Shown one piece after another: positions 4,244 through 53,866 of a stretch of DNA of 64,000 nt. The notes under the pieces are model-generated. The model worked only from the letters and a program-made list of their open reading frames with translations. It was not told where the DNA came from and did no database searches. How positions within the stretch are numbered: the stretch's first letter is position 1; every line of letters begins with the position of its first letter. Source of the DNA: a virus; IMG/VR virus record IMGVR_UViG_3300032242_003291, positions 208,285 through 272,284 of that record, one strand, 5' to 3'. Both the position numbers and the translations under genes were made by a program.

Positions 4244-4473
4244 ATTATTTATTTTATATTACAAAACTAATACAAAGATATGATATATCCATCAGTATTT
4301 ATACTGAATTTTTTTCGGGGTCGGGTTAATCTGAGATGGTCATAATGAGGGGGTGATTATATGAACCAATCCGAACCACCGAAGGTGGTCGGGGACCGTC
4401 GGTCAAAAACGGGGGAAAATATCGACGAAGTCGTTTTCGTCGGCGAATATCTGGTTAAAAGCAGAATTAATTC

Positions 4474-4773
4474 TTACTGATGCCCATATACACCATCAGT
4501 TTCAAGAACATCTTCATTAAGTGTGTGAGCAACCCATCTCTTCATATACCAATCAACTTCTTCCACACTAAGAGAAAACATATCCATAATTGCAACCTGA
4601 ATATGTTGCATATAGTTAAATTGTTTGCGGGCATAAATTAATGCGCCGACAACATAAAAATTATCATGATATAGAATAAGGTGGTTATTCTGAAGTGCAG
4701 TTTTATAATCACCGAACCTATCCGTTATGAACTGTAGTATCAACTTTTCCATGAATTTTTTCATTTCCTCCAA
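4474..4773 (-). CDS. Hypothetical protein.
   Basis: ORF track. Confidence 0.4.
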   Translation of the reverse strand: MEEMKKFMEKLILQFITDRFGDYKTALQNNHLILYHDNFYVVGALIYARKQFNYMQHIQVAIMDMFSLSVEEVDWYMKRWVAHTLNEDVLETDGVYGHQ

Positions 4774-4954
4774 ATTTATATCTAAGCTGAAAAAGTTTCA
4801 TTATTTTATCATATTCATCCTCGATTTCTTGCCAATATTTTTTTGCATACAAATCACCTTCCTCTGTAGCAACACCACCTAAACTTTTCAACTTCTCAAC
4901 GTGTGGAAATCTATCTTCTGTTACTATATTCATTATGTATTTTTTTATTACCAC
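4718..4954 (-). CDS. Tandem-array paralog 1. Small protein with motifs DRFPH...LGG...FGGNxKIH.
   Basis: ORF track. Likely start MNIVTEDRFPH at about 4933. Confidence 0.45.
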   Translation of the reverse strand: MVIKKYIMNIVTEDRFPHVEKLKSLGGVATEEGDLYAKKYWQEIEDEYDKIMKLFQLRYKFGGNEKIHGKVDTTVHNG

Positions 4955-5111
4955 CGATTCTAAATCTTTCCAAAGTATTTTCCATAATGAAATCAGATTC
5001 TATGATAAATTCCGAATAGTTGTCATTATAATACTTTTCCGCTTCTATAGTTTCACCCAACTTCATTAAATTATAATGGTGCGGGAACCTATCTTTGTTT
5101 GCTATTGTCAT
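4911..5111 (-). CDS. Tandem-array paralog 2 (DRFPH / GGNKKIH).
   Basis: ORF track. ATG at 5109-5111. Overlaps the upstream paralog by about 23 nt. Confidence 0.45.
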   Translation of the reverse strand: MTIANKDRFPHHYNLMKLGETIEAEKYYNDNYSEFIIESDFIMENTLERFRIGGNKKIHNEYSNRR

Positions 5112-5301
5112 TATGAATTATTTTATTACCACCAAATGTTTGTCTAATTGTTACGGTTTCCACGAGGAATTCATATTCTTTATTCAACAGGTCACTATAC
5201 ACCTGATTATACCATCTAGCTTCATCAGTAGTTCCACCAAGTCTCATCAATTCTTTATAGTGGGGGAATCTATCTTTATTTGATATTGTTGCTATTGTCA
5301 C
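5089..5301 (-). CDS. Tandem-array paralog 3 (DRFPH / GGNKIIH).
   Basis: ORF track. Confidence 0.45.
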   Translation of the reverse strand: MTIATISNKDRFPHYKELMRLGGTTDEARWYNQVYSDLLNKEYEFLVETVTIRQTFGGNKIIHNDNSKQR

Positions 5302-5524
5302 TATTAATTATTTTATGAATAAATTCACTTCCACCCAATTGTTTTCTAAACCTATTTTCATCAATAAGTCTATCATATTCTTTATTTATCACATATTGAT
5401 TTTGTTCTGTATACAAACGACCTTCAGCAGTTTCAGAATTACCCAAACGAAATAACTCTTTAATGTGGGGGTACTTATCTATAATCATATTTAACGTATT
5501 TGTGAATAGCTTTATTTCCACCAA
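5276..5524 (-). CDS. Tandem-array paralog 4 (DKYPH / LGGSEFIH).
   Basis: ORF track. Confidence 0.45.
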   Translation of the reverse strand: MVEIKLFTNTLNMIIDKYPHIKELFRLGNSETAEGRLYTEQNQYVINKEYDRLIDENRFRKQLGGSEFIHKIINSDNSNNIK

Positions 5525-5684
5525 ACTTATATCTTAATTCAACATCATATAAATCCAAGTAGTTACCACGATTTTTCATGGAAGGAATACCATACATTCC
5601 TGCTGAAAGAACAAACTTGCGTCTCCTTATTTGATTTTTGGCATCAAGATACTTGTTCCACTGTTTTACTTCTTCTTGTTTCAT
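5475..5684 (-). CDS. Tandem-array paralog 5, divergent (FGGNKAIH).
   Basis: ORF track. Confidence 0.4.
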   Translation of the reverse strand: MKQEEVKQWNKYLDAKNQIRRRKFVLSAGMYGIPSMKNRGNYLDLYDVELRYKFGGNKAIHKYVKYDYR

Positions 5685-5874
5685 TTTTAATTAATTCATG
5701 TATTGCTCGGTCCCCACCCAATTTAAGTCTGAGATTATACATCTGCAATTTTTTTACAGCATCCGTCAACTCAAACCATAAAGAACCATTCGGGTTAACA
5801 AAATATAAACGTTCGTTATAACTATTCTCTTTCATATACGCATTCAGTTGGTTTATTCTTCTCCCACATATCAA
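5644..5874 (-). CDS. Tandem-array paralog 6, divergent (LGGDRAIH).
   Basis: ORF track. Confidence 0.4.
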   Translation of the reverse strand: MICGRRINQLNAYMKENSYNERLYFVNPNGSLWFELTDAVKKLQMYNLRLKLGGDRAIHELIKNETRRSKTVEQVS

Positions 5875-6115
5875 ATATAAAATCCAAAAATTCGGGACCT
5901 ACTGCAAAGTAATCCAAAAAGTCGTGAACAGATGCATACTCACACATTCTACCATGTTTATAATTATCGTATAATCCAATATTCACTCTCTCCCCCTCCT
6001 TATAAAAGATATTCTTCTTCGTTGCAACAAGTGTCACGGTCCCCAACTTATCTGACCTATTGGATAATACATCAAGATAACATCTTTGAAATGTGAAAAA
6101 TTTATTGAAGTCCAT
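5822..6115 (-). CDS. Hypothetical protein.
   Basis: ORF track. Confidence 0.4.
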   Translation of the reverse strand: MDFNKFFTFQRCYLDVLSNRSDKLGTVTLVATKKNIFYKEGERVNIGLYDNYKHGRMCEYASVHDFLDYFAVGPEFLDFIFDMWEKNKPTECVYERE

Positions 6116-6209
6116 ATACTATTTTCTTTTATCCATTTTTTCATCCACAATGGTCCATACAAATATAACAACCACCATCCCGAAAAAGATAATCATTGAG
6201 TAGTCCATA

Positions 6210-6392
6210 TTATCTTTTTTTGAATAGGTTAATAAATCCACTTATAGTTGAAAATACCAACACATAGTATAATCCAATTACAATCCATTTAACAATTTCC
6301 ATAATATAATTTTTACAAACATAGTATATTCCACAAAATTTTCCAAAAATTTTTTTTCTCGTTGGGTGAGTATAATAAAAGTGGGGGGTCAT
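6210..6392 (-). CDS. Small hydrophobic protein with one transmembrane segment.
   Basis: ORF track. Hydrophobic core IVKWIVIGLYYVLVFSTISGFINLF. Confidence 0.25.
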   Translation of the reverse strand: MTPHFYYTHPTRKKIFGKFCGIYYVCKNYIMEIVKWIVIGLYYVLVFSTISGFINLFKKR

Positions 6393-6534
6393 GTTCTTAA
6401 ATAAGTTACCTATTGTTCTTAACTCAAGAGGTGATGCACTTAAATTGGAAATATATTTCTAAATTATTAAAATTAAATAATGACTTGTTATTTTTTAGGT
6501 TGTAAACATATAATAATAATTTACAATTGGAAAT

Positions 6535-32320: not shown

Positions 32321-33358
32321 TTAATACCATGTTTGTCTTTTCTCATCAAACGTCCAACCATCTCTTTGTTCTCCAGGTTCTCCTGTACCTGTTGGTGGTT
32401 GTGGTGATTTTTGTGTTGTTTGCTCAGGTGCTTGTTGTGCTGATTGTTGCGCTTGTTGTGGCGCTGGTTGTGTTGTATCATTATCCCCTTCAACACCTTG
32501 TTTTGTTGTATTTCCACTATCTTCAACAGCTGTGTAGTCACTGTATGGATTATTATTCTGAGTTTGGCCACCTTTCAAATATTCATCTTTATATGACGCC
32601 CATGCCTTTGTTGTTCTTGGACCCATTCTACCATAACCCGCACCTGTTTTGTTCAAAATATTATTAGCATACCCTGTAGCCCAACCTGCCTTGTTTTCAT
32701 CTAACCAATCTTGGAAAGCCTTTACTCCTTTAATATCTTTTAATTCAGGTGGCGTCGGAGTTACACTTGAAGTAGAGCCACCCCCGCCACTTTTTTTATT
32801 AGTATCACTTTTCCATTTTTTTGTCGCAGAAGTAAAACTATCACCATCAGCAGTGTTTATTATTAGATTAGTTCCATCTACTTTCCAAGTTCCAGTCCAT
32901 GTGTCAGATACTGCTTTTCTAGCTAAAAGATTATCCCATCCATCAGAAATATAAAATTTTCCATCAGGCATAAATCCATAATAATACTTTTCATTCTCAC
33001 CAGTTCTTTGTGCAGCAAGTAATCCAGTGTCTTTATTTCTCACAGTTGGATAATGAATAACCTTAAAATAAGATGTATCTTTTAGGAAAGCCATCAAAAT
33101 AGGAAATTTGTCAAACCATCCTGTAGTTGAGGCAACATTATATTTAGCGTCAAGTTCTGCTTGCTTTTTGTTAGCTGCGGCAATGTCGTCAGCAGTTCTG
33201 TGTTCAGTACCAGGGTCTATTTTGTTTAGTTCCGCTCTTTCATAACTACCAATCACATCTTCATTAAATTCTTGTTCAGAAATTACTCTACCTCTTTGAT
33301 ATCCAAATAAGGATTTCATTCTTGTGATATCTTCATTAATCAATTTTTTTGAATCCAT
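32321..33358 (-). CDS. Virion-protein candidate with a propeptide-like N-terminus (RGRVISEQ), a peptidoglycan-binding-like segment, and a Gln/Pro-rich low-complexity C-terminus.
   Basis: GYGRMGPRTTKAWASYKDEY resembles the PG_binding_1 core. PQQAQQSAQQAPEQTTQKSPQPP forms the low-complexity tail. Confidence 0.45.
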   Translation of the reverse strand: MDSKKLINEDITRMKSLFGYQRGRVISEQEFNEDVIGSYERAELNKIDPGTEHRTADDIAAANKKQAELDAKYNVASTTGWFDKFPILMAFLKDTSYFKVIHYPTVRNKDTGLLAAQRTGENEKYYYGFMPDGKFYISDGWDNLLARKAVSDTWTGTWKVDGTNLIINTADGDSFTSATKKWKSDTNKKSGGGGSTSSVTPTPPELKDIKGVKAFQDWLDENKAGWATGYANNILNKTGAGYGRMGPRTTKAWASYKDEYLKGGQTQNNNPYSDYTAVEDSGNTTKQGVEGDNDTTQPAPQQAQQSAQQAPEQTTQKSPQPPTGTGEPGEQRDGWTFDEKRQTWY

Positions 33359-33384
33359 GTCTATTTTATTTATAAATATTCAAT

Positions 33385-33420
33385 AAAACAAAAAACCCCA
33401 TCCGTAGAAACGGACAGGGT
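33385..33420 (-). terminator. Strong intrinsic terminator (ccctgtccgt-ttct-acggatgggg followed by T6) ending the ORF-free transcript region.
   Basis: 10-bp stem plus T-run on the minus strand. Confidence 0.55.
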
Positions 33421-34341
33421 TAAGGCAAAAAAGGTTGAGAATACACCAAATTGAGAGAGTCTTTACAGGAGATTATTTTGATTCCTCCGATTTCCACTTC
33501 CTTTTGAGAAGTAACTCTCAGTCACGGTCAATTAGATTAACCAATCCTTAAGTCGTAATATACTCTATTCTTACTCATCACTCTTCGAGGTTGCCACCCC
33601 AATTAATCCTTGCGAGATTAGAGAACTTTCAAAACAATCGTATCGGGTTTGGGACCCTCTACGGCCATGAACAACTCATGACTAAGTAGTGACCTGTCTA
33701 CCACGACTGATGAACACTTTTCCTTGTATTATTAATTGATTTGTTAGAATCCAAATTTTAACAAAGGTTGTGATTTGTGGATGATAGATGTAGCGGTTCA
33801 TCAAACCAGCCATCTCATCTTTTGAACGAGACGATACTGAACTACACCTTGAAGTCTCCCGACCTCCATATCTCAAGTTTACTTCATAACTCCTACCTTG
33901 GTAGGTGAAGAGTAAGGAGAACAACAGCACCACCTGTACGAACCCATACCTTTCGGTTTTAAGTCTACTCTAATATTGAACTCCGTAATTGTATAGTTGG
34001 ATGACCATACTTCTTACAACAGCTCTACGAGTTATTCTTATTGGAGTTCCCTCCTCAACCAAACGACCCACATCGCTTGGTCACCCAACCACTTTCCCTA
34101 CAGTGTTACCCTCAGTACTAAAGGTCAGATGATATCCCGCTTGTCTACTCGAGCTCCCTTTCGGAAGCCGCAACCGTTCCAATCAAGAACGAATCACTTT
34201 ATACTACTTTCATAGTTTATTTTATGGATTATAGACCACCCAATATTTTTATTCAAAGAACTATCAAATTTGAAGGAGAGAGGAAACTTTACGACCAAGT
34301 AAACTTGGAACCTTTACTACCTCTTTCCTTCATTTGTCTTA
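33421..34341 (-). ncRNA. Candidate non-coding RNA locus: about 0.9-1.4 kb, ORF-free and GC-richer, bounded by three TAnnTTTG promoter motifs and a strong terminator.
   Basis: No ORF longer than 83 aa on any frame. GC is noticeably above flanking DNA. Promoters at 34342, 34522 and 34847 all point into it. Terminator at 33385. Confidence 0.35.
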
Positions 34342-34349
34342 CAAAGATA
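34342..34349 (-). promoter_or_regulatory. TATCTTTG -7 box (minus strand), oriented into the ORF-free region.
   Basis: ttgtcttacaaagataagattg. Confidence 0.4.
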
Positions 34350-34521
34350 AGATTGTTTTTGGAAACAATCAAATCTTTTAAGAGATTTTTTAACATAATA
34401 ACTGATTTAGTTATTCTCCATTGAAGATGTGTTATTCACCTTCAATCACCCCCTACTCGTAATAGGACAGGTTAACTTTCTCTCCGTGTTAAAGAACTAA
34501 CAACTCTCGTCGTTTGTTTTT

Positions 34522-34529
34522 CAAAGATA
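34522..34529 (-). promoter_or_regulatory. TATCTTTG -7 box (minus strand).
   Basis: tttttcaaagataagaag. Confidence 0.4.
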
Positions 34530-34609
34530 AGAAGAACTTTTCAATTCGTCAAATCTTTTTTTAAAAATAGGGAACCTCGATTTTACGACCATAGTCAACC
34601 CATTCTTAG

Positions 34610-34681
34610 TTGCGAGGGATGGATTCGAACCACCGACCTAAAGGTTATGAGCCTTCCGAGCTACCTCTGCTCTACCTCACG
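34610..34681 (-). tRNA. tRNA with CAU anticodon (Met, or Ile2 if modified), 72 nt, no encoded CCA.
   Basis: Minus strand reads CGTGAGG-TA-GAGC-AGAGGTA-GCTC-G-GAAGG-CTCATAA-CCTTT-AGGTC-GGTGG-TTCGAAT-CCATC-CCTCGCA-A. Canonical T-loop GGTTCGAATCC, anticodon loop CUCAUAA, 7-nt D-loop with GG. Position 1:72 is a C:A mismatch, as in bacterial initiator tRNA. Confidence 0.6.
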
Positions 34682-34846
34682 ATATATCTTAATGATTACA
34701 AACCCACTTCCCCACGGTCACCTATCCACGTCATGCGCTGGTTGTACCAGCGGGTGTAATCAAATTTATTAAAGAACTATCTCAAAAAGAAGTCCCACAA
34801 GCTTCAGTATTTCTCTCGAATCACACACTCGTGGGACATTTGTTTT

Positions 34847-34854
34847 ACAAAGGT
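34847..34854 (-). promoter_or_regulatory. TAccTTTG -7 box (minus strand), about 165 nt upstream of the tRNA.
   Basis: ttttacaaaggtaagtg. Confidence 0.4.
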
Positions 34855-34979
34855 AAGTGATAGTTTTGACACTGTCAAATTTTTATAAAACTTTTTTTGG
34901 GGATGTTTGTCCATTCGGACTTGGATATATAAATATATCCGTTTTCATCAAAGTCTCACAAAGATAGATAAATTTTTCA

Positions 34980-35399
34980 CTATTGTAAAATAATTTCAGC
35001 TAATTTGTAAAAATATTCTCCTGATGTCTCAGGTTTTATCTCTTTCAGAGTAAAATAACCACACTCTGTATGTTCATCTCCATCTATTGCATTCAACAGG
35101 TCAGGGTATAATGGAGTCTCAATTTCTAATAAATAAACATACATAAAACCTTTTACTTTTTTTCCGTCTCGGGTATGTCTTGGGATTAATCCGACAAACT
35201 TTAATTCAAGGTCACCAATATTAATATTTGTTTCCTCGAGAAACTCTCTTTTAGCGCCCTCTTGTGTTGTTTCATTTTCTTCTAACTTGCCACCAGGTAT
35301 AGACCACATACCAGGATATGACCCCTGATTATTTCTTTTACATAAAAGAAGTTTGTTTTTATATTTTACAGCAACCCCGACGTATCTTTTTTTATCCAT
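34980..35399 (-). CDS. NUDIX hydrolase.
   Basis: Nudix box GGKLEENETTQEGAKREFLEETNI matches GX5EX7REUXEEXGU. Confidence 0.65.
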   Translation of the reverse strand: MDKKRYVGVAVKYKNKLLLCKRNNQGSYPGMWSIPGGKLEENETTQEGAKREFLEETNINIGDLELKFVGLIPRHTRDGKKVKGFMYVYLLEIETPLYPDLLNAIDGDEHTECGYFTLKEIKPETSGEYFYKLAEIILQ

Positions 35400-35761
35400 G
35401 GTATTTATATTATATGAAAGTTAAAATTAACGAAAATATTATTAAAGTAAAAACATTAATTGACAAACATTCTCAAGCAATTGGTATGATGGGAAAAAAA
35501 TTTGACAAATCATTTAATGGTTTATTATTTTTAATGGGTGGAAAAAAACAATGCTTTTGGATGAAGAATTGTATCATCCCATTAGACATAATAATAATAA
35601 AAAATAATGTAATAGTTAATATACATCAAGATTGTCCTCCTTGTAATGAAGAACCTTGTCCTTCTTATTGTGGAAGAGGTAATATAGTTTTAGAACTTGC
35701 TGGTGGTAGTTGTGAGAGTCTTAACATACAACCTGGTGATTCTGTTGAATATCTATTTTAA
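35318..35761 (+). CDS. DUF192-family protein. Likely start MKVKINEN at about 35414.
   Basis: GMMGKK...GLLFLMGGKKQCFWMKNCIIPLDIIII...CPPC...IVLELAGGSCESLNIQPGDSV fits the DUF192/COG1430 pattern. Confidence 0.5.
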   Translation: MTPDYFFYIKEVCFYILQQPRRIFFYPWYLYYMKVKINENIIKVKTLIDKHSQAIGMMGKKFDKSFNGLLFLMGGKKQCFWMKNCIIPLDIIIIKNNVIVNIHQDCPPCNEEPCPSYCGRGNIVLELAGGSCESLNIQPGDSVEYLF

Positions 35762-37180
35762 TTTAGATTCTTTTTCTTCTTCAATCTTTTCTTTTAGTTT
35801 TGTTTTGAATTCGTTGGCTATCATCTTTGTAAATTTAACATAAGGGTGGTCTTCGCTCTCAGGATTATAACGATAAGAACCTTGAGGTGGTCTTGTACCT
35901 CTACCCAAATAACTTAATCCTCCAATGTTTGTGATACATTTATGCCCACCTGAATTAGATTGAATTAAATCCCATGCATTTACCAAGATACTGTCTAAAA
36001 TGTTTTTTTCTCTATCAGTCAAATCTTTGAATGGTTTCTCCATCATCTCCCTAATCTTATCTAAAGCTTCCTCCCCTTTTGGAATACCTATGAATTTACC
36101 ACCATATATCGCATCAAAATCTTGGAACGTATACCCAATACTTTCAGGACCAACACTAGTCTCGCTAATCCATTTAATTGTAGATAATGGTATTTTCTTG
36201 TCTTTGAGTTGACCTTCCCATTTTGATAATACTTCTTGTGCTATCTCACCTAAATTTACGCCTTTAAGTCCTCGGTCTTTTTTGAAGGGATTACAAGATG
36301 CTTGAACTAATCCCATGGGCCAAGCCATAATCAAAAAATCGGATTCAGGATTATTTCTGAATGGTGTGTATCTATCATAAGAACCTGGTTTGAACATACT
36401 ACCACCACCATATTGATAAATTATATTATCACTAACCTGAGGAAAATCCTTCATTTGTTGTGCATAATCATCTGCATTTGATTGTAATTCTTCAGGACCT
36501 ACTGAATTGGTCTTTTTCATCCACTCTTTGATGTTTCCTAATATTGAAAGTAATGATGGTTCCGAATCCATAACCAATCCTTCCAAAAAACCTGGCTTAT
36601 TTTTGAATGCTAAAATTAATTTGTTAATGACCAAACCTAACAACATTTTATTTTTTTGTAATGATTTGTCTTTATCGAATCTGTATATATAATTTACGAC
36701 TTCATCAGGAGTAATATTGTGTTTAATAAAATCCGCAGAGTCTACAGTATTAATTAACAAAACATCTGATGTTGGAAACAAATCTTTTGTTGATACTACT
36801 TGAGATATCGTTTCGACATTTGAACGTGCACCTCTAAATTGTTTTGATGTTCCCTTTTCAACCCCTACTTGTGTGTCATGATGGTCAGTATGAATTTTGA
36901 ACATTGGTTTACCGTGAGCAAAATCTACAAGGACAGGCATTGTATCACCTGTTGCATCATTTTTTTTAACTGAAAACTCCTTGTCACCATATTGAATTAC
37001 ATGAGCCCCAACAACATCAATACCATTATCTTCAAGATATTTTTTCATTGCAATTGCTGTTGTAACACCATCTAAGTCCTGATGAAAATAAATTTCGGCT
37101 TTGGGATATCTTTTCCTCAAAGCCGAAATATCTCTTATACCGCTTTCGTTAATTAATTTTTTCATTAAAGTCCAATCCAA
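35753..37180 (-). CDS. DHH-family phosphoesterase (NrnA/GdpP/RecJ-like catalytic core) with a large C-terminal extension.
   Basis: Motifs FHQDLDGVTTAIAM (DxD), LVDFAHG, IHTDHHDT (DHH). Confidence 0.55.
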   Translation of the reverse strand: MDWTLMKKLINESGIRDISALRKRYPKAEIYFHQDLDGVTTAIAMKKYLEDNGIDVVGAHVIQYGDKEFSVKKNDATGDTMPVLVDFAHGKPMFKIHTDHHDTQVGVEKGTSKQFRGARSNVETISQVVSTKDLFPTSDVLLINTVDSADFIKHNITPDEVVNYIYRFDKDKSLQKNKMLLGLVINKLILAFKNKPGFLEGLVMDSEPSLLSILGNIKEWMKKTNSVGPEELQSNADDYAQQMKDFPQVSDNIIYQYGGGSMFKPGSYDRYTPFRNNPESDFLIMAWPMGLVQASCNPFKKDRGLKGVNLGEIAQEVLSKWEGQLKDKKIPLSTIKWISETSVGPESIGYTFQDFDAIYGGKFIGIPKGEEALDKIREMMEKPFKDLTDREKNILDSILVNAWDLIQSNSGGHKCITNIGGLSYLGRGTRPPQGSYRYNPESEDHPYVKFTKMIANEFKTKLKEKIEEEKESKLK

Positions 37181-46246: not shown

Positions 46247-47100
46247 TGATTAAATTTATTAACATATTAGAAAACGTTATATCAGAACAAAAGAAATATC
46301 AATTTCATCCTGAAGTACTTCAGAAGTTAAAAGATATTACAAATAGACTTTGGAATGATAGAAAAAAGAAATACAAAGGGAGAACATTAGTCGACTCTTT
46401 AATATTTCACGTTGCTGATGGTACTGAAGGTTTAGTTAAGTTTTATGTAAATCCTGATTTACCATACATTGGTTTCATGGATACTGAACCAAAAAAATCT
46501 ACAAATCCTAAAGATATATACATTGATGTTAATCCTAAAAACTACGAAAGTAAAAAGAATTTATATCTCACACTATATCATGAAATGATTCATGCGTCAG
46601 ACCCTAATTTGTCAACCAAGATGACTAAAAAATACATGTCAACTTATGATGAGAATAGTGATGAAAAGTATTGGGGTCATCCAATTGAATTCTTTGCAAT
46701 AACTAACGAATTTTTGGAAGGCTTGATAAATGAATTCCAACTAAGAGTGTTCAGATTAAGAAATGTTGAAAATAAAAAAGCACTAATCAAATCATTTAAT
46801 AACATATTAAATTATTTTTCAAAAGGTGAAAAGTTATCAAGATTATCTTTGAATATTTTGGACAGAATAAATGATACTGGTGTAGTTGAAGATAAATTCA
46901 AAAGAGTTTTTTCAGATATTTCAGTTGAAAGTCCAATTTCTTCTGAATTAGTTAAGTCTGAAGATGAAGAACCATATTATTTAACATATATTAATTTAAT
47001 CAAAAAATACAATCCGAAAATTTGGACAAGGTTTTTAACGATGTTATATAAAGCAAAGGAAGATGTTGAAGATGTGATAAATAAAAAGGGACTTAAATAA
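46246..47100 (+). CDS. HExxH zinc-metallopeptidase-like protein. N-terminus [17 protein letters not shown] (I-S-E).
   Basis: [12 protein letters not shown]. Confidence 0.45.
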
Positions 47101-47118
47101 GTCCCTTTTCTTTTGCTA
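47088..47118. terminator. Bidirectional terminator hairpin (gggactt-aaat-aagtccc) between convergent genes.
   Basis: Followed by TTTTCTTTTG on the plus strand. Confidence 0.5.
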
Positions 47119-48916
47119 TTAATTCCAATTTGTCTAATTTGTTTTGACTAACTTCAAGAATAACCGATTGTTCTTTTATTGCTTCAATACATAATGCAAC
47201 AATATCTTGATATTTAACTCTTAAAATTTCAGGTTCTTCACCCATTACTACTTCGGGTAATGCGATTTTAAGCTCTTGAGCGATAAACCCTATGTCTCTT
47301 CTTTCATTATTTCCACCTGCTCCGTTTTTCCAAAAGAAACTAACCCCTCTAATTTTTTTAATTGTATTAATTGAATCTTTTATTATTTGGATATCTTTCT
47401 TAAACCTTTGGTCTGATGGACCTGGAGGACCCGTTGGTCCTGTTGGTCCTGGCGCTCCTGTATCACCTGGTGCGCCTCCAGGTCCTGTCGGTCCTGTAGG
47501 TCCTTGAGGACCTTGTGGACCTGTATATCCTGTTGGTCCTCTACCTCCTTGTGGACCTGTTGGTCCTTGTGGTCCTGTTGGTCCTGTTGGACCTGGTGCA
47601 CCACCACCACCTTGGCTTCCTTGAGCTCCTGTAGCACCTCCACCTCCTTGAGCACCCTGAGCACCTCCAGGTCCTGTTGGTCCTGTTGCACCTTGTGGTC
47701 CTCTTGGTCCCTGTGGCCCCGTTGCCCCTTGGGCTCCTTGACCTCCTGTTCCTCCTTGGGCTCCCTGAGCTCCTTGAGCTCCACCAGCTCCTTGAGCTCC
47801 CTGAGCTCCTACGGGTGATGGTCCTGGTATTCCTGTTGCACCTTGAGCACCTTGAGCTCCTGTAGCACCTCCACCTCCTTGTGCACCTTGTGCACCTTGG
47901 CTTCCTCCAGGACCTTGTGCACCTTGGTTTCCTCCAGGACCTTGAGCTCCTTGCGCACCTTGTCCTCCTGTAGCACCTTGGGCTCCTGTTGAACCTCCGC
48001 CTCCTTGTGCACCTTGCGCACCCTGTCCTCCTGTTGCTCCTTGAGCCCCTTGTGGTCCTTGGACTAAAATTCCTGTTGGTCCTTGAGCACCTGTAGCACC
48101 TTGTGGACCTGTAGCTCCTTGAGCACCTGTGATTCCCTGAGCTCCTTGAAACCCTTGTGCTCCTTGACCTCCTTGAGCACCTACTGAACCTAAACTTCCT
48201 TGAGCACCTTGTCCTCCTGTAGTTCCTTGAGCACCTTGTGGTCCAGCATTTCCTTGAGCACCTTGAAATCCTTGGGCTCCGATTGCACCTTGTGAACCTG
48301 TTGCTCCCTGTCCTCCCTGAGCCCCTTGGGCACCTTGTCCTCCTGTTGAACCCGCACCCCCCTGTGCACCTTGTCCTCCTTGAGCACCTTGAGCTCCTTG
48401 TCCTCCTGTCGGTCCTTGAGCACCTTGTGCTCCTGAAGCACCTTGAGCACCCTGAGCGCCTTGTCCTCCCTGAGCACCCTGAGCGCCCGTTGCTCCTCCT
48501 CCTCCTTGAGCACCCTGAGCACCTTGTCCTCCTTGAGCACCCTGAGTTGTACTGTTAGCTCCTTGTGCTCCCGCAGTTCCTTGGGCTCCTTGCGCACCTT
48601 GGATTCCCTGAGCTCCTTGAGCTCCTTGAGCACCTTGAGCCCCTGTTGGTCCTGATGGTCCTGCTGGTTGAGCACTTCCTTTCCAACCTGTACTATCTAT
48701 TAAAGTTCCAAATGAATTAATTAAAGATGTACCTAATCTTAAGTCAGCATTCGAAACTGCTATTGTTGGTTGAGTCGAATTAAATGCTATATAGGTTGTT
48801 GCACCTCTTTTGAATTTAATTGAACCAGATTCAATGACCATTGTTGTTACTGTACTCGCAGTATCACTAAAATCAATTTTGCCCGACCCTGGGGTTATAA
48901 TTATATCTTCAGCCAC
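47093..48916 (-). CDS. Collagen-like (Gly-X-Y) tail-fibre protein with a C-terminal intramolecular-chaperone/auto-processing (peptidase S74-like) domain.
   Basis: N-terminus [12 protein letters not shown]. About 400 aa of GAQ/GPT/GGQ triplets. C-terminus [15 protein letters not shown]...GVSFFWKNG matches the S74 SDxRxKxxI...GV.F.W signature. Confidence 0.7.
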
Positions 48917-50795
48917 CTATTAACTCTTTTAGTTTGTTTATTCTTTGATAGATAGAATCAATTATTTTTTGTTGTTCTTGTATTGAACCAATACCCAAAC
49001 TAACCATCGCACCATATTCTACGGATTTGTATCCGTCTTCATCAGTAAATACTAATTCGGGAACTATATTTTCAACTTGTTGAGCAATAACACCAATAGC
49101 ATTACCTTGAAAGGCTTCAGGTACTTCAATATTTTTGTCATTTATAATTTTCGGATGATTATAATCCCAAACGAAACTAACTCCTTCTATTTGTTTTGTT
49201 TTGCCGTAAACATCAGACAAAGGTTTAATATTATCTTTTAATCTTCTATCTGATGGAGGGCCTTGTGGTCCTTGAGGTCCTGTTGGTCCTTGAGCACCTT
49301 GGGCACCTTGTCCTCCCATACCACCCTGTGGTCCTGTAGGTCCTACGTTTCCTTGAGGTCCTGTGTATCCGTATGGTCCTTGTGGTCCTGTGGCACCTTG
49401 TGGTCCTGTGGCACCTTGAGGTCCTGTTGGTCCTCCAACACCTTGAGCACCTGTTGCTCCTCCACCACCCTGAGAACCTTGCGCACCTGTTGCTCCTCCA
49501 CCACCTGTCGCTCCTTGAGCTCCTTGGAATCCTTGAGCACCTCCTGGTCCTCCTGGCCCTTGAGCACCTTGTGGACCACCTGGTCCTGTGGCACCCGTCG
49601 CACCTGCAGTTCCACTTGCTGCCCCTTGAGCTCCTTGAGCTCCTTGACCTCCAGTTCCACCTTGAGGTCCCGTAGGTCCTTGAGCACCTGTTGCTCCTCC
49701 TCCACCTGCGGTTCCTTGAGCTCCTTGAGCTCCAGTTGTGGCACTTGCAGCACCTTGAGCACCTGTTGGTCCCTGAGAACCTTGAGCACCTTGAGCACCT
49801 GTTGTTCCACCCTGAGCACCTTGAGCACCAGTACCTCCTTGAGCGCCTTGGGCACCTTGAGCACCTGTTGTTCCACCTTGTGCTCCTTGAGCTCCTGTGG
49901 CACCTTGAGGACCTAATCCTCCTTGAGCCCCTGTGGCACCTTGAGCACCTGTTGAACCTTGAGCACCTTGAGCACCTGTTGAACCTTGAGCACCTTGTAC
50001 ACCACCTTGAGCTCCTTGAGCTCCTTGAGCACCTTGTGGACCTTGTGGGCCTTGAGCACCTTGAGTAAGTCCTTGAGCTCCTTGAGCACCTGTAGCTCCT
50101 TGAAAACCCTGAGCTCCTTGAGCTCCTGTTACCACACTTGCACTTCCTTGAGCTCCTTGGGCTCCTGTATTCCCTGTGGCTCCCTGAGCTCCAGTTGTCA
50201 CACCTTGAGCCCCTTGTGCTCCCTGAGCTCCCGTATTTCCTGTAGCTCCTTGAGCCCCTGTATTAGCACCTTGTGCACCTTGAGCACCTGTTGAGCCTTG
50301 AGCCCCTGTATTACCTTGAGCCCCTGTGTTGGCACCTTGTGCACCTTGGGCACCTGTCGAACCTTGAGCACCTGTTGCCCCTTGAGCACCTGTCGCCCCT
50401 TGAGCACCTGTTGTACCTATAGTACCTTGAGCCCCTGCTGAACCTTGAGCCCCTGTAGGACCTGTGTTACCTGGAGCTCCTGTTGCTCCTTGAGCACCTT
50501 GACCACCTTGTGCACCTGCGGAGCCTTGAGCACCTGCTATACCTGATGTGGGTCCAACCCAAACTCCTGTATTATCAATCATCTTAAGACCACCAACATA
50601 TAAATTACCTGTTACTGAAGTTCCACTTGAAACCATAGTATCTGTAATTGTTGATGAACTTGTGTTAGTTGAAGATGAAAAAACAATTTGACCATTTTGT
50701 ACATCTATTGCCATCAAATTTGTTCCGTCATTAAACAACGCGTAAGGGTCAGTAATAGTTCCTTTACCTTGTGGATATATAATTACATTAGCCAT
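48909..50795 (-). CDS. Collagen-like tail-fibre protein with a C-terminal S74-like chaperone domain.
   Basis: N-terminus [12 protein letters not shown]. Gly-X-Y repeats. C-terminus [34 protein letters not shown]. Confidence 0.7.
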
Positions 50796-53700
50796 TAATT
50801 CAATTTATTTTCTAAGTCTTTTAATTGTTCTTCGATGTCTTCAATAAATACTTGTTGTTCTTTTATACCTTCAACTAAAACCGCATTTAATTTAGCATAC
50901 TCAACTTTATAATATCCATCTTCCGTAGTTTGTATTACTTCAGGGTAATATTCTCTAACGTTTTGTGCAATTAATCCAATTGAGTGTAATCTATCTTGTT
51001 TTTGATAATAAACGTATTGACTTGGATTTAATTTTTCGTTCCAATCAAATTCAACAACATCAAACTTCAATATAGATTTCAATGTATCAGGAATTGTTTC
51101 AATTCCTTGTTTTAATCTTCTATCTGAACAAAATCCCTGTGCAGACCAATAACTTCGATTATCTAAGTAACCGTAAACACCACAGATTTTAACGTAATTA
51201 TTTTCAATTCCTGTACCCGAGTTATTAAATGTTTGACATGCATAGTACGTAGGATATAAAAGTCCATATCCTCTTGATGAAATATTACATGCATAGTCAT
51301 TTCCAAAAACTAAACCACCATTACCATAATAACAAGCATAGCTTATAGAAGGTCCCCATTCGATACTAAGACTATAACAAGTTTGATATGCTGATGGACC
51401 TGTCGGACCTGCTGGACCTGATGGGCCTTGAGCTCCTTGCGCTCCTTGATAACCAGTAGGTCCTGTATATCCGTATGGTCCTGGAGGGCCGTAGGGTCCT
51501 GTTGGTCCTTGTGGCCCTGTTGGTCCTGTTGGTCCTGTACCACCTTGAGGTCCTTGTGGTCCAGTACCTCCCTGTGCCCCTGTTGCACCTCCACCACCTT
51601 GTGACCCTTGTGCACCTGTCGCACCTTGTGGGCCTGTTGGACCTGTCGGTCCCGTGGCTCCTTGTGCTCCTGTGGCACCACCTCCTCCTGTGCTACCTTG
51701 AGCTCCTTGAGCTCCTGTTGGACCTCCTGGACCTGTTGGACCTGTGGGTCCACGAGAACCTTGACCTCCTGGTGCTCCTGTTGAACCTTGTGGTCCCGCC
51801 GCGCCTCCACCTCCTTGAGCTCCTTGAGCTCCTTGTCCTCCTTGTGCTCCTGTATTACCTGTGGCTCCTTGTGGACCTCTTGTTCCTGTAGCACCTGGTG
51901 AACCTTGAGCTCCTGTGGCACCTCCCGCTCCTTGTGGACCAACATTACCCGTATTTCCTTGTGCACCTTGGTTCCCTGTACCACCCGTAGCACCTGTTGG
52001 ACCTCTAAAACCTACAGCTCCTTGTGCCCCTGTTGGTCCTACTGGACCTTGAGCACCTTGTGGTCCTGTGGCTCCTTGTGCCCCTGTATTACCTTGAGCC
52101 CCTTGTGGACCTTGAGCACCTTGTGGGCCTGAAGCTCCTTGTGCACCTGTAGGTCCTTGTGCCCCTGTACTACCTTGAGCCCCTTGTGGTCCTACAAAAC
52201 CTGTATTACCTTGTGCACCTATATTACCTTGAGCTCCTTGTCCACCTGTTGGTCCACGTGAACCTTGTGCTCCTTGTCCTCCTTGAGCTCCTGTATCCCC
52301 TCCCGTTCCTGTTGGACCTACAGCACCTGTGGCACCTCCCAAACCTTGTGAACCATTTGCTCCCGTCGCACCTTGTGGTCCTGGTGCACCTGTTTTTTTT
52401 ATGATTAAGTTGTAGTTATTACCAATAGTTAGAGAACCAACAAAAGAATCATTAGTAAGTATAGCATAAAATGTACCAAAATCAGTTACACTTGTAATTA
52501 AAGTATTTATCCAACCATTAGTACCATCAGTATATGTAAGTGAATCACCAACATAAGGTAAAGCTAATGTATTTCCATTAAAATCAGTTTTGTTTACATT
52601 TGCTCTTTTTGCTAATGATTTATATAATTGTCCTGCGTCATTCGAAAAAGCATATTGATACGGGTTTGTATTACCTGCATAACCTTGAGCCCCTTGACCT
52701 CCTTGCGACCCTGTATTACCTGTGCTACCTTGGGAGCCTGTTGCACCTTGAGCACCTGTATTACCTTGAGCACCTGTATTACCTTGAGCCCCTTGTCCTC
52801 CTTGTGCTCCTGTTGTACCAACAGCTCCTTGAGCTCCTGTTGTACCTTGTGTACCTTGCGGTCCTTTATATCCAACACATTTACCTACACAACTTGTATA
52901 TGCATATCCTGTTGGACAAGTGTATCCTGATGAAATATATATTCCATTTACGTTTTGAACAACTTCTGCACTTGTTTTACCACTTGATGATGAAATAATA
53001 TTCAATTGGGAAACACTTGTAGCTGCCGTTAATTGGGCTAATGTATTATCATAAACTTCATATCCAAAACCTTGGATTGAACCTTCGTTCAGTCCATAAA
53101 GTTCTAAAGTATGATTTCCCCCAGACAAAGTAATTGGATAGACGTTCCAATATTTGAATGTATTAGGACTTCCTGAAGTTGAAGGGGTATATGTATTTAC
53201 AACATCTGTTGAATCTAATCTAAGTCTGTATTCGTTGTCCGCACCAACACCAATATAGTAGGTTTTACCAGCAGTTATTCCTGACAAACATGTAGAATAA
53301 CCATACCAATAATAATCTTGTACTGTTGAACCTGATTTACCAGACCTATTTAATGGTCCGTCAAGTCCACTTGGTTGAGTTCTTCTCCAAACACCAGCAT
53401 TTAATGACGTTGCTTGAACAGTACCAGAACCATCAGTGGCATATCCTGAAGCGAAAAATCTTGTTCCAAAATCACTATATTCAATAGCGGCCGTATTTGT
53501 TAATGAAACCGTAAAGGCTGGTGGTGTTGGGTCTATAATGTTACCTGTGTATCCTTGTGCACCTGCAGCACCTTGTGCACCTGAAATATTTGTGGTTGGT
53601 CCAACCCAACTTGATGTTGCGTTTATGACTTGAGTTCCGTTAACTCCAAAGTAACCTGTGACATTTAATGAACTACCAATTGATATAATTGCGTTACTTG

Positions 53701-53866
53701 GCTGAATTGATAATACACTACTTTGTGTGGTCGAACTAAATTGTACTGTCGCACCTGATAAAACTTGTAAAGTAAGAGTTCCTGTATTAGTAAAATTGAT
53801 GTAAGGTATACGTGTTGCCAACCTTGATACCGCATTACTCGGATAGATTATTATATTTTTAGCCAT
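50795..53866 (-). CDS. Large collagen-like tail-fibre protein (1023 aa) with a globular beta-rich middle domain and a C-terminal S74-like chaperone domain.
   Basis: N-terminus [13 protein letters not shown]. Two Gly-X-Y blocks. C-terminus [31 protein letters not shown]. Confidence 0.7.

Follow-up and report, generated by a model that had tools for sequence, protein, structure and literature searches.

A tRNA-linked non-coding RNA gene cluster with GOLLD as its probable main product in an uncultivated phage

A stretch of 64,000 nucleotides (nt) from the IMG/VR virus record IMGVR_UViG_3300032242_003291 (positions 208,285 to 272,284), here called the window, contains a long region without open reading frames (ORFs) next to a gene for tRNA-Met(CAU). 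The analysis of this region indicates that it is very probably a gene cluster for non-coding RNAs (ncRNAs) of an uncultivated phage with Bacteroidota-type promoters, and that it mainly encodes a full-length GOLLD RNA, 812 nt in length (34243..33432, minus strand). GOLLD ranks among the largest non-coding RNAs of bacteria and phages. Its expression rises during phage-induced lysis, and its assembly into RNA-only cages that exceed the ribosome in size has been known since 2025. The phage context of the window is given by collagen/S74 tail-fibre genes and a DNA methylase. An initial annotation made from the letters of the window had proposed a candidate stable structured ncRNA on the minus strand with host-type promoters, an intrinsic terminator and linkage to the tRNA, and this proposal is supported by the results described below.

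Identification of the main RNA as GOLLD

The whole window was scanned with the Rfam covariance models, as had been suggested in the initial annotation, and at the gathering thresholds only two matches were obtained, namely the tRNA and GOLLD (RF02032). The GOLLD match at 33432..33849 on the minus strand reached 325.1 bits compared to a gathering score of 150 (E = 2e-92). It spans model positions 1-416 of 416 and is not truncated, and no non-canonical consensus pair was flagged. According to the cmscan alignment, the 3' helices including the long-range pseudoknot-type pairing can form. The class of the RNA, earlier described as not identifiable by eye, is identifiable and known by means of this match, and the novelty of the main RNA is therefore lower. 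GOLLD nt 1 is located 366 nt downstream of the tRNA-Met gene, and since GOLLD beside a phage tRNA-Met represents the textbook context, the RNA is a new member of an already known family.

Since RF02032 models only the conserved 3' half of GOLLD, the 5' half (33850..34243) has no Rfam match of its own, and on this ground the main RNA could be assigned to an unclassified class, for example an intron remnant, or a ribozyme or large ncRNA of a new type. For comparison, the sequence of the 833-nt RNA env-38 was taken from Supplementary Table 4 of Kretsch et al. 2025 (PMC12286853). In an end-to-end MAFFT alignment with env-38 and two GOLLD RNAs of huge phages, nt 1 of env-38 corresponds to approximately 34243 and its 3' end (CUCAACCU) to 33432 of the window, and the limits of the 812-nt GOLLD were therefore set at 34243..33432. 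Identical residues were found at 542 of 782 aligned positions (about 69%), the 5' domain reaching 68% (261 of 384 aligned positions) and the 3' domain 71%; these identities are approximate because the env-38 sequence was machine-read from a PDF (816 of 833 nt). The 3' domain of the window contains an A-rich unstructured linker at approximately 33779..33722, a P21a loop CGCAA with a central GC (33616..33608) and a P21b loop UGGCAA containing GGCA (33598..33589). At the position of P11a, a hairpin capped by GAAA is kept.

A near-identity search with 20 kb around the locus against 50,697 GenBank phages gave no match. A distant search of the GenBank phages with the locus by BLAST returned, apart from tRNA matches, only two GOLLD 5' domains, as 33922..34241 of the window matched two uncultured phages of 630-640 kb (LR745206 and LR756502). 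In both huge phages the matched segment is followed immediately downstream by a GOLLD 3' domain (287 and 275 bits). The two loci, L001 (LR745206.1 418024..423261) and L002 (LR756502.1 431764..437091), hold full GOLLD RNAs with adjoining tRNAs in records that are unannotated, and their 5' domains are homologous to that of the window. The 5' half therefore does not stand alone: it aligns over its full length to env-38 and to the huge-phage 5' domains and is contiguous with the 3' domain. Moreover, when the Rfam scan was repeated permissively (E up to 10) for the whole locus and for 34600..34790, only chance-level matches were obtained besides GOLLD and the tRNA (for example an L10 leader with 27 bits versus 44, and terminator look-alikes). 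No intron or ribozyme family was among them, and the ribozyme or intron remnant considered in the initial annotation is unsupported for the 812-nt RNA. An unclassified class is very improbable on these grounds and already refuted for the 812-nt RNA; it stays open for two small upstream elements, termed L2 and X, only.

Structural conservation in related phages

Relatives were retrieved from IMG/VR by means of a conserved 18-mer of the 5' domain and of the neighbouring NUDIX protein, and all of them are viral contigs of this database. The collection comprises 49 distinct full-length GOLLD relatives with lengths of 789-834 nt and identities of 64-97% to the window. In close relatives GOLLD is 90-97% identical, compared to 73-93% for the flanks (leader, X and the end of the NUDIX gene). 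RNAalifold predicted 105 pairs for the 5' domains of 31 sequences, and 67 of these pairs showed compensatory changes, a pair being counted as compensated if both sides had changed and pairing was kept in at least one sequence. An alignment of this kind had been named in the initial annotation as a check, and a frameshifted or interrupted protein gene as the finding that would speak against an ncRNA; the region aligns to a structured RNA and not to a disrupted gene. Due to the compensatory changes, a pseudogene is excluded and the 5' half is shown to be under structural selection.

A decayed protein gene or a run of small unannotated genes might be considered because several ORFs of 30-83 amino acids (aa) occur in the region and because a larger gap without long ORFs elsewhere in the window (4244..6534) is a run of small genes. 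This explanation has a negligible probability and is already refuted for 33432..34243 in view of the full-length covariance-model match far over the threshold, the substitutions in 31-49 relatives that keep base pairs rather than reading frames, and the stronger conservation of the region in comparison with the neighbouring genes. Further upstream, a 1-nt indel in the L2 core region of the relative L163 breaks any frame there. The conservation also bears on the idea that this GOLLD copy is an inert passenger travelling with the tRNA module, which could be put forward because a function has been assigned to no GOLLD so far and because the comparable RNA ROOL was reported to be non-essential in one strain (PMC12286853). 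Such a passenger, however, would hardly be expected to possess its own consensus promoter and a strong terminator, to stay conserved while its flanks diverge, to keep 67 pairs of its 5' domain by compensatory changes and to be retained at full length in dozens of distinct contigs of related phages. An inert passenger is accordingly regarded as improbable.

Organization of the locus, promoters and terminator

The region 33421..~34600 had been described as free of ORFs longer than 83 aa, which agrees with the ORF list, where the longest ORF in 33421..34600 is one of 83 aa (33682..33933, minus strand). With a threshold of 100 aa, the gap extends from 33359 to 34979 (1621 nt) and is the second longest in the window. 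Its neighbours, both encoded on the minus strand, are a 345-aa gene that ends at 33358 and the NUDIX gene, which starts at 34980. The GC content is 0.408 for the GOLLD part and 0.391 for the locus, compared to a window mean of 0.335, and 9% of all 812-nt windows are equally GC-rich, most of them inside the block of collagen-repeat genes. The higher GC content noticed earlier is thus real as a modest enrichment (0.41 vs 0.335) and not as an extreme one. The three promoters, the tRNA-Met gene and the strong terminator are all located on the minus strand (Table 1). The order NUDIX gene, promoter P3, hairpin, L2, tRNA-Met, trailer, promoter P2, X, promoter P1, leader hairpin, GOLLD, terminator is kept across an alignment of 25 relatives.

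Table 1. Features of the ncRNA gene cluster (positions in the window).
Feature	Position	Strand	Basis or description
Intrinsic terminator ending the GOLLD unit	33385..33421	-	12-bp stem 33421..33394, then UUUUUUGUUUU
GOLLD 3' domain (P14-P27)	33432..33849	-	Rfam RF02032
GOLLD 5' domain (P1-P13)	33850..34243	-	Alignment with env-38 and huge-phage GOLLDs; RNAalifold
P1 transcript leader	34244..34336	-	Long hairpin 34336..34265 with two GGUNGUAAAGNUUCC copies
Sequence within P1 leader	34262..34253	-	AGUUCUUUGA, then AAUAAAAAUA abutting GOLLD nt 1
Promoter P1	34342..34373	-	TTTG-N20-TATCTTTG, then ACAAAUG; kept in all relatives
Unit X behind P2	34375..34516	-	Small hairpin, AGUUCUUUAA (34498..34489), core hairpin, optional hairpin, 3' hairpin
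Promoter P2	34522..34553	-	TTTG-N20-TATCTTTG, then ACAAACG
tRNA trailer	34562..34608	-	Hairpin GGGUUGACUAUGGUCGUAAAAUCGAGGUUCCC, then UAUUUUU; terminator-like; z only -1.7
tRNA-Met(CAU)	34609..34681 (ARAGORN), 34610..34681 (Rfam, 59.8 bits)	-	
L2 motif	34693..34762	-	Hairpin of 70 nt with variable outer stem; ends 11 nt before the tRNA 5' end
Promoter-proximal hairpin of P3 transcript	34784..34837	-	Hairpin 34837..34792, then UUCUUUUU; AGUUCUUUAA at 34778..34769
Promoter P3	34848..34879	-	TTTG-N20-TACCTTTG, then ACAAAUG

The motif TAnnTTTG is found on the minus strand at 34342, 34522 and 34848, with a fourth copy at 34959. The three sites listed in the initial annotation are thus all present on the proposed strand, the third of them at 34848 instead of 34847. 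As a bare 8-mer the motif is mildly enriched in the window (126 occurrences versus 99 expected). The bipartite form TTTG-N18-21-TAnnTTTG, which is the consensus of the Bacteroidota sigma-A promoter, occurs 19 times versus 3.7 expected, a count that was reached by none of 100 shuffles. All three sites of the locus are bipartite with a spacer of 20 nt each and are followed by ACAAAyG, and the complete consensus promoters P1, P2 and P3 are conserved in every relative. A sigma-70-like sequence TTGAAT-17-TATAAT at 34256..34228 was rejected as a promoter, since its TATAAT is part of GOLLD helix P1 and its spacing is destroyed by a 63-nt insertion in many relatives.

The terminator at the end of the GOLLD unit, placed at 33385-33420 in the initial annotation, was confirmed as a strong one with a GC stem and a T-run, with the correction that the stem comprises 12 bp and not 10 bp. 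Its U-run corresponds to T6GT4 and the fold reaches -18.5 kcal/mol (z = -5.41), with none of 200 shuffles being equally stable. In the closest relatives the terminator is 93-100% identical.

The stretch 34885..34966 (minus strand) holds the fourth promoter-like box (TATCTTTG at 34959), which overlaps with the NUDIX gene end. After this box come a conserved element of two hairpins, GGAUAUAUUUAUAUAUCC and GUCCGAAUGGAC, and then AACAUCCCC; the second hairpin (GUCCGAAUGGAC) shows compensatory changes.

Transcription units upstream of GOLLD

The hairpin of the P1 transcript leader has a fold of -24.1 kcal/mol (z = -3.85), and of its 12 consensus pairs 7 are compensated in 21 relatives. A motif GGUNGUAAAG..UUCC is present twice in this hairpin (34320..34306 and 34296..34282), and a related copy is located in the tRNA trailer (34590..34571), all on the minus strand. 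In the relatives L083, L136 and L094 variants GGUUGACCAUAGGUCGUAAAAUCGAGGUUCC take the place of the leader hairpin. Possibly the motif is a repeat bound by a protein. An additional hairpin of ~63 nt (..GAUGAUGAGACCUUCGGGUUGAUUCUGAG..) is present between AGUUCUUUGAAUAAAAAUA and GOLLD nt 1 in many relatives, for example L072 (6341..6405), L122 (7161..7223) and L120 (7096..7169); this hairpin is missing from the window (at 34244) and from L047, L052, L006 and L043.

In unit X, the core hairpin at 34472..34448 (ACCUGUCCUAUUAnGAGUAGGGGGU) consists of 10 pairs, 3 of which are compensated, and 97% of the cells are paired in 20 relatives. The changes include U-A to C-G replacements, and the fold of X has a z-score of -2.6. 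The optional hairpin (34445..34418) is missing in about one third of the relatives. The promoter-proximal hairpin of the P3 transcript has a fold of -24.4 kcal/mol (z = -4.81) and 12 pairs, 6 of them compensated. Almost all relatives with this hairpin have a U-run after it. The hairpin with its U-run resembles an intrinsic terminator or attenuator placed where the tRNA unit begins, and it could also end the NUDIX transcript. At the position of the tRNA trailer, other relatives contain unrelated hairpins and U-runs, and such non-homologous hairpin/U-run pairs suggest that the terminator function of the trailer is conserved. Neither X nor the leader hairpins nor L2 are covered by any Rfam family (E up to 10).

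Behind P1, P2 and P3 alike, the promoter-proximal hairpin is followed by a further sequence, AGUUCUUUrA (Table 1). Four copies are present in the window versus 0.8 expected, three of them in the locus, and the copy before GOLLD is invariant in the relatives and may mark a processing site.

According to the proposed organization, P3 would drive a separate short unit composed of the hairpin, L2, the initiator-like tRNA-Met and a hairpin with U-run, and P2 would drive a second one containing X. As an alternative, the whole locus may be one long precursor in which transcripts started at P3 and P2 continue past the tRNA and X into GOLLD, with the promoter-proximal hairpins and AGUUCUUUrA as processing sites at which the tRNA, L2, X and GOLLD would be released in the manner of the T4 tRNA cluster. 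In line with a precursor, all elements are located on one strand, a consensus scan flagged only the terminator 33394..33421, AGUUCUUUrA occurs three times in the locus at an expectation of 0.8 for the whole window, and L128, L127, L103 and L006 lack a trailer between the tRNA and P2. In addition, co-transcription of tRNAs and GOLLD was put forward as a possibility by Weinberg et al. 2017. However, read-through alone would not require three complete promoters kept in every relative, and the hairpins with U-runs after P3 and after the tRNA, the latter non-homologous between relatives, fit real terminators. A single precursor is thus considered possible but rather unlikely, and separate units are favoured because of the U-run after the P3 hairpin and the unrelated hairpin/U-run pairs after the tRNA.

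The tRNA-Met gene and the L2 hairpin

The tRNA-Met(CAU) gene, which had been recognized at 34610..34681 from the letters, was found by ARAGORN as well as by Rfam. It possesses the initiator features C1xA72 mismatch and A11:U24, and at the foot of the anticodon stem two of three G-C pairs (A29-U41, G30-C40, G31-C39). Bacterial tRNA-fMet is characterized by the lack of a Watson-Crick pair 1:72, by A11:U24 and by three G-C pairs at the foot of the anticodon stem. Among 22 distinct tRNA(CAU) genes adjoining L2, C1xA72 was found in 16 and G1-C72 in none, and most of the tRNA(CAU) genes beside GOLLD or L2 in the relatives have C1xA72 or U1-A72. By its sequence the tRNA of the window thus appears initiator-like.

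Across all relatives, the 70 nt just 5' of the tRNA hardly vary and are even better conserved than the tRNA. This hairpin, L2, has an invariant core of 25 nt, CAACCAG-M-GCAUGAC-K-UGGAU(A)GGUG. In a scan of IMG/VR with two degenerate positions (M = A/C, K = G/T), the core was detected in 95 contigs, where it usually precedes a tRNA (mostly tRNA-Met) by a few nt or is flanked by tRNA-Asp and tRNA-Met, among others in L200, L201, L203, L206, L213, L235, L250, L251 and L276. When N was allowed at both positions, only the combinations C..G (82) and A..U (25) occurred. A covariance model (R1) built from 30 diverse copies recognized L2 of the window with 65.3 bits (E = 7e-19). In 41 distinct sequences 94% of the cells pair, and the covariation score of 0.335 exceeds both that of shuffled alignments (0.093, reached by 0 of 500) and that of slid registers (0.01-0.06). 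The loop-closing M-K pair is A-U in 22 sequences, C-G in 18 and U-A in one, and it is unpaired in none; the CCA/UGG and CA/UG helices of the core show no variation in this set. The neighbouring G.U pair is near-invariant, and L2 was therefore assigned to the strand of the tRNA. The outer stem is stable in every copy, its sequence being unrelated between copies. In most copies a tRNA, mostly tRNA(CAU), starts 22-38 nt after the core, and in tRNA arrays tRNA-Asp often ends 19 nt before it.

With a 7-nt loop on two pairs, a 3-nt bulge and then short helices with single bulges, L2 has a shape typical of a protein operator. The AUGA in its loop is complementary to UCAU in the anticodon loop of tRNA-Met. 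L2 was found in none of the 50,697 GenBank phage records and matches no Rfam family, and a search of 185,579 species genomes gave one match, on a contig of a Victivallales metagenome-assembled genome.

Several known roles were considered for L2 and rejected. L2 is not a companion of GOLLD but goes with tRNAs, since it is present at only 5 of 100 other GOLLD loci, and is also present in tRNA arrays that lack GOLLD. A peptide gene (ATG ACG TGG ...) is contradicted by the indel in L163 and by the base-pair covariation, and a k-turn by the topology. Ribozymes of the hepatitis delta virus (HDV) type have a nested double pseudoknot (P1, P1.1, P2, P3, P4) and a catalytic C in J4/2. L2 as an HDV-like or theta ribozyme was rejected as it is a nested hairpin without double pseudoknot and without an HDV-family match at E up to 10, and as the adjacent tRNA is mostly located 3' of L2 and not at a 5' cleavage site. 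T-box leaders contain a Stem I with Specifier loop and an antiterminator whose UGGN bulge is located at a distance of about one tRNA length, and lie upstream of an aminoacyl-tRNA-related gene. For L2 there was no T-box match; it comprises 60-70 nt, precedes a tRNA and not an mRNA, and the resemblance is one of sequence words only, with the AUGA loop and the UGGU segment ~10 nt apart.

With moderate confidence, L2 is considered to be an undescribed structured RNA class that is specific to uncultivated phages and built into pre-tRNA transcripts. Most likely it would be recognized by a phage or host protein or RNase that controls how the adjacent tRNA, mostly an initiator-like tRNA-Met, is processed, stabilized or used; as a bolder reading, L2 may be a small RNA of a new type that cleaves itself or binds tRNA.

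Predicted cage and points weighing against the interpretation

GOLLD RNAs are encoded in phages and prophages, often near tRNAs (PMC12286853). For env-38, a location 'downstream of Met-tRNA' was reported, and the RNA assembles into a closed cage of 380 Å, a 14-mer with D7 symmetry, with the 5' domains as caps, the 3' domains as rings and a disordered linker inside; the inter-subunit bridges involve L21a with central GC or CG and the GGCA of L21b, and L11a is GAAA (PMC12286853). The subunit number of GOLLD depends on P7, P9, P10, P11a-c and P21b (PMC12990946). Judged by the published cryo-electron microscopy of env-38 and of the Streptococcus agalactiae GOLLD, the window transcript would fold into separate 5' and 3' domains, would assemble by itself and free of protein into a closed dihedral homo-oligomeric nanocage, and would expose its A-rich linker to the cage interior. 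By analogy, an env-38-like 14-mer is the best guess because of the full-length alignment to env-38 and because both P21 hairpins (P21a and P21b) are kept. Roles suggested for GOLLD, as hypotheses, are the enclosing or tethering of tRNAs or ribosomes (PMC12286853, PMC12990946). The cage of the window phage might likewise act on the translation apparatus during infection, for example by holding or shielding tRNAs or ribosomes, a role that is unproven.

Several points weigh against this interpretation of the locus. The comparison with env-38 relies on the machine-read copy, and the P11a hairpin is shorter than that of env-38, a kind of difference that alters the subunit number in published work. 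Transcript ends, abundance and processing are inferred from the sequence, and the host phylum is deduced from the promoter motif alone. The hairpin with U-run after P3 and the other one after the tRNA raise doubt as to how much of the transcription from P3 and P2 reaches GOLLD.

Other features of the window

The longest gap without an ORF of at least 100 aa is found at 4244..6534 (2291 nt). It contains small minus-strand ORFs (60-99 aa) and several TAnnTTTG boxes, as is typical of phage early genes, and has no Rfam match. A GC-rich island of 6 kb at 47093..53866 (minus strand; 0.44-0.51 versus 0.31) corresponds to three consecutive tail-fibre-like genes with collagen triple-helix repeats and a C-terminal S74 intramolecular chaperone domain, and its GC content is due to Gly-X-Y codons. 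No Pfam match was obtained for two minus-strand genes, the 345-aa gene just downstream of the GOLLD terminator (32321..33358) and a 475-aa gene upstream of the NUDIX gene (35753..37180). The remaining neighbours encode NUDIX, SPFH/Band 7, N6/N4 DNA methylase, cytidylyltransferase-like and APS-kinase-like proteins.

Significance and comparison with known systems

The GOLLD of the window adds no new principle, as the main RNA belongs to a known family in its usual context. Its genetic setting is well defined, with its own consensus promoter, a clean terminator, an initiator-like tRNA upstream and dozens of close relatives offering natural variation. L2, a by-product of the analysis, is possibly worth more: it is compact, extremely conserved, located beside tRNA genes in about a hundred contigs of uncultivated phages and seemingly uncatalogued, and it could point to an unknown step in how phages deal with the tRNAs they encode.

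Theta ribozymes adopt the double-pseudoknot fold of HDV, and their self-cleavage takes place at the 5' end. L2 resembles these minimal HDV-like ribozymes in being small, highly conserved and located in uncultivated phages a few nt from tRNA genes, often tRNA-Met, the tRNAs of theta ribozymes lying within 5 nt of the cleavage site (PMC10879173). Unlike them, L2 is a nested hairpin without HDV-like topology, is mostly located 5' of the tRNA and has no HDV family match.

The stable RNAs of the T4 tRNA region (species 1 and 2), as they are generally known, are likewise small non-tRNA RNAs beside a phage tRNA on the same strand. The analogy to this region drawn in the initial annotation holds as far as small conserved non-tRNA RNAs (L2 and X) beside the tRNA are concerned and is otherwise loose, since no sequence or Rfam relation was detected and T4 has no GOLLD, the dominant RNA here.

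ROOL (RF03087 class, forming 8-mer or 6-mer cages) is, like GOLLD, a large ornate RNA of phages and prophages near tRNA genes that builds RNA-only cages; its sequence and fold are unrelated, and the Rfam scan gave no ROOL match in the window. The Streptococcus agalactiae GOLLD (12-mer, PDB 9L0R, PMC12990946) belongs to the same family and shares the conserved P14-P27 3' domain, which drives ring formation; it comprises 700 nt and lacks P9, P11a-c and P21b (PMC12990946).

Unlike env-38 (marine metagenome, PDB 9MEE, PMC12286853), the window copy has a Bacteroidota-type promoter context and is known from its sequence alone. Both domains nevertheless align end to end at ~69% identity, the lengths are 812 nt and 833 nt, and both RNAs are located downstream of a tRNA-Met. 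The hairpin at the P11a position is CC-GAAA-GG in the window and GGGG-AAA-CCCC in env-38. The A-rich linker after the first helix of the 3' domain, the P21a loop CGCAA and a GGCA-containing P21b loop are common to both. As the alignment with env-38 extends across the regions of P9, P11a-c and P21b, the RNA of the window represents the env-38-like long form of GOLLD.

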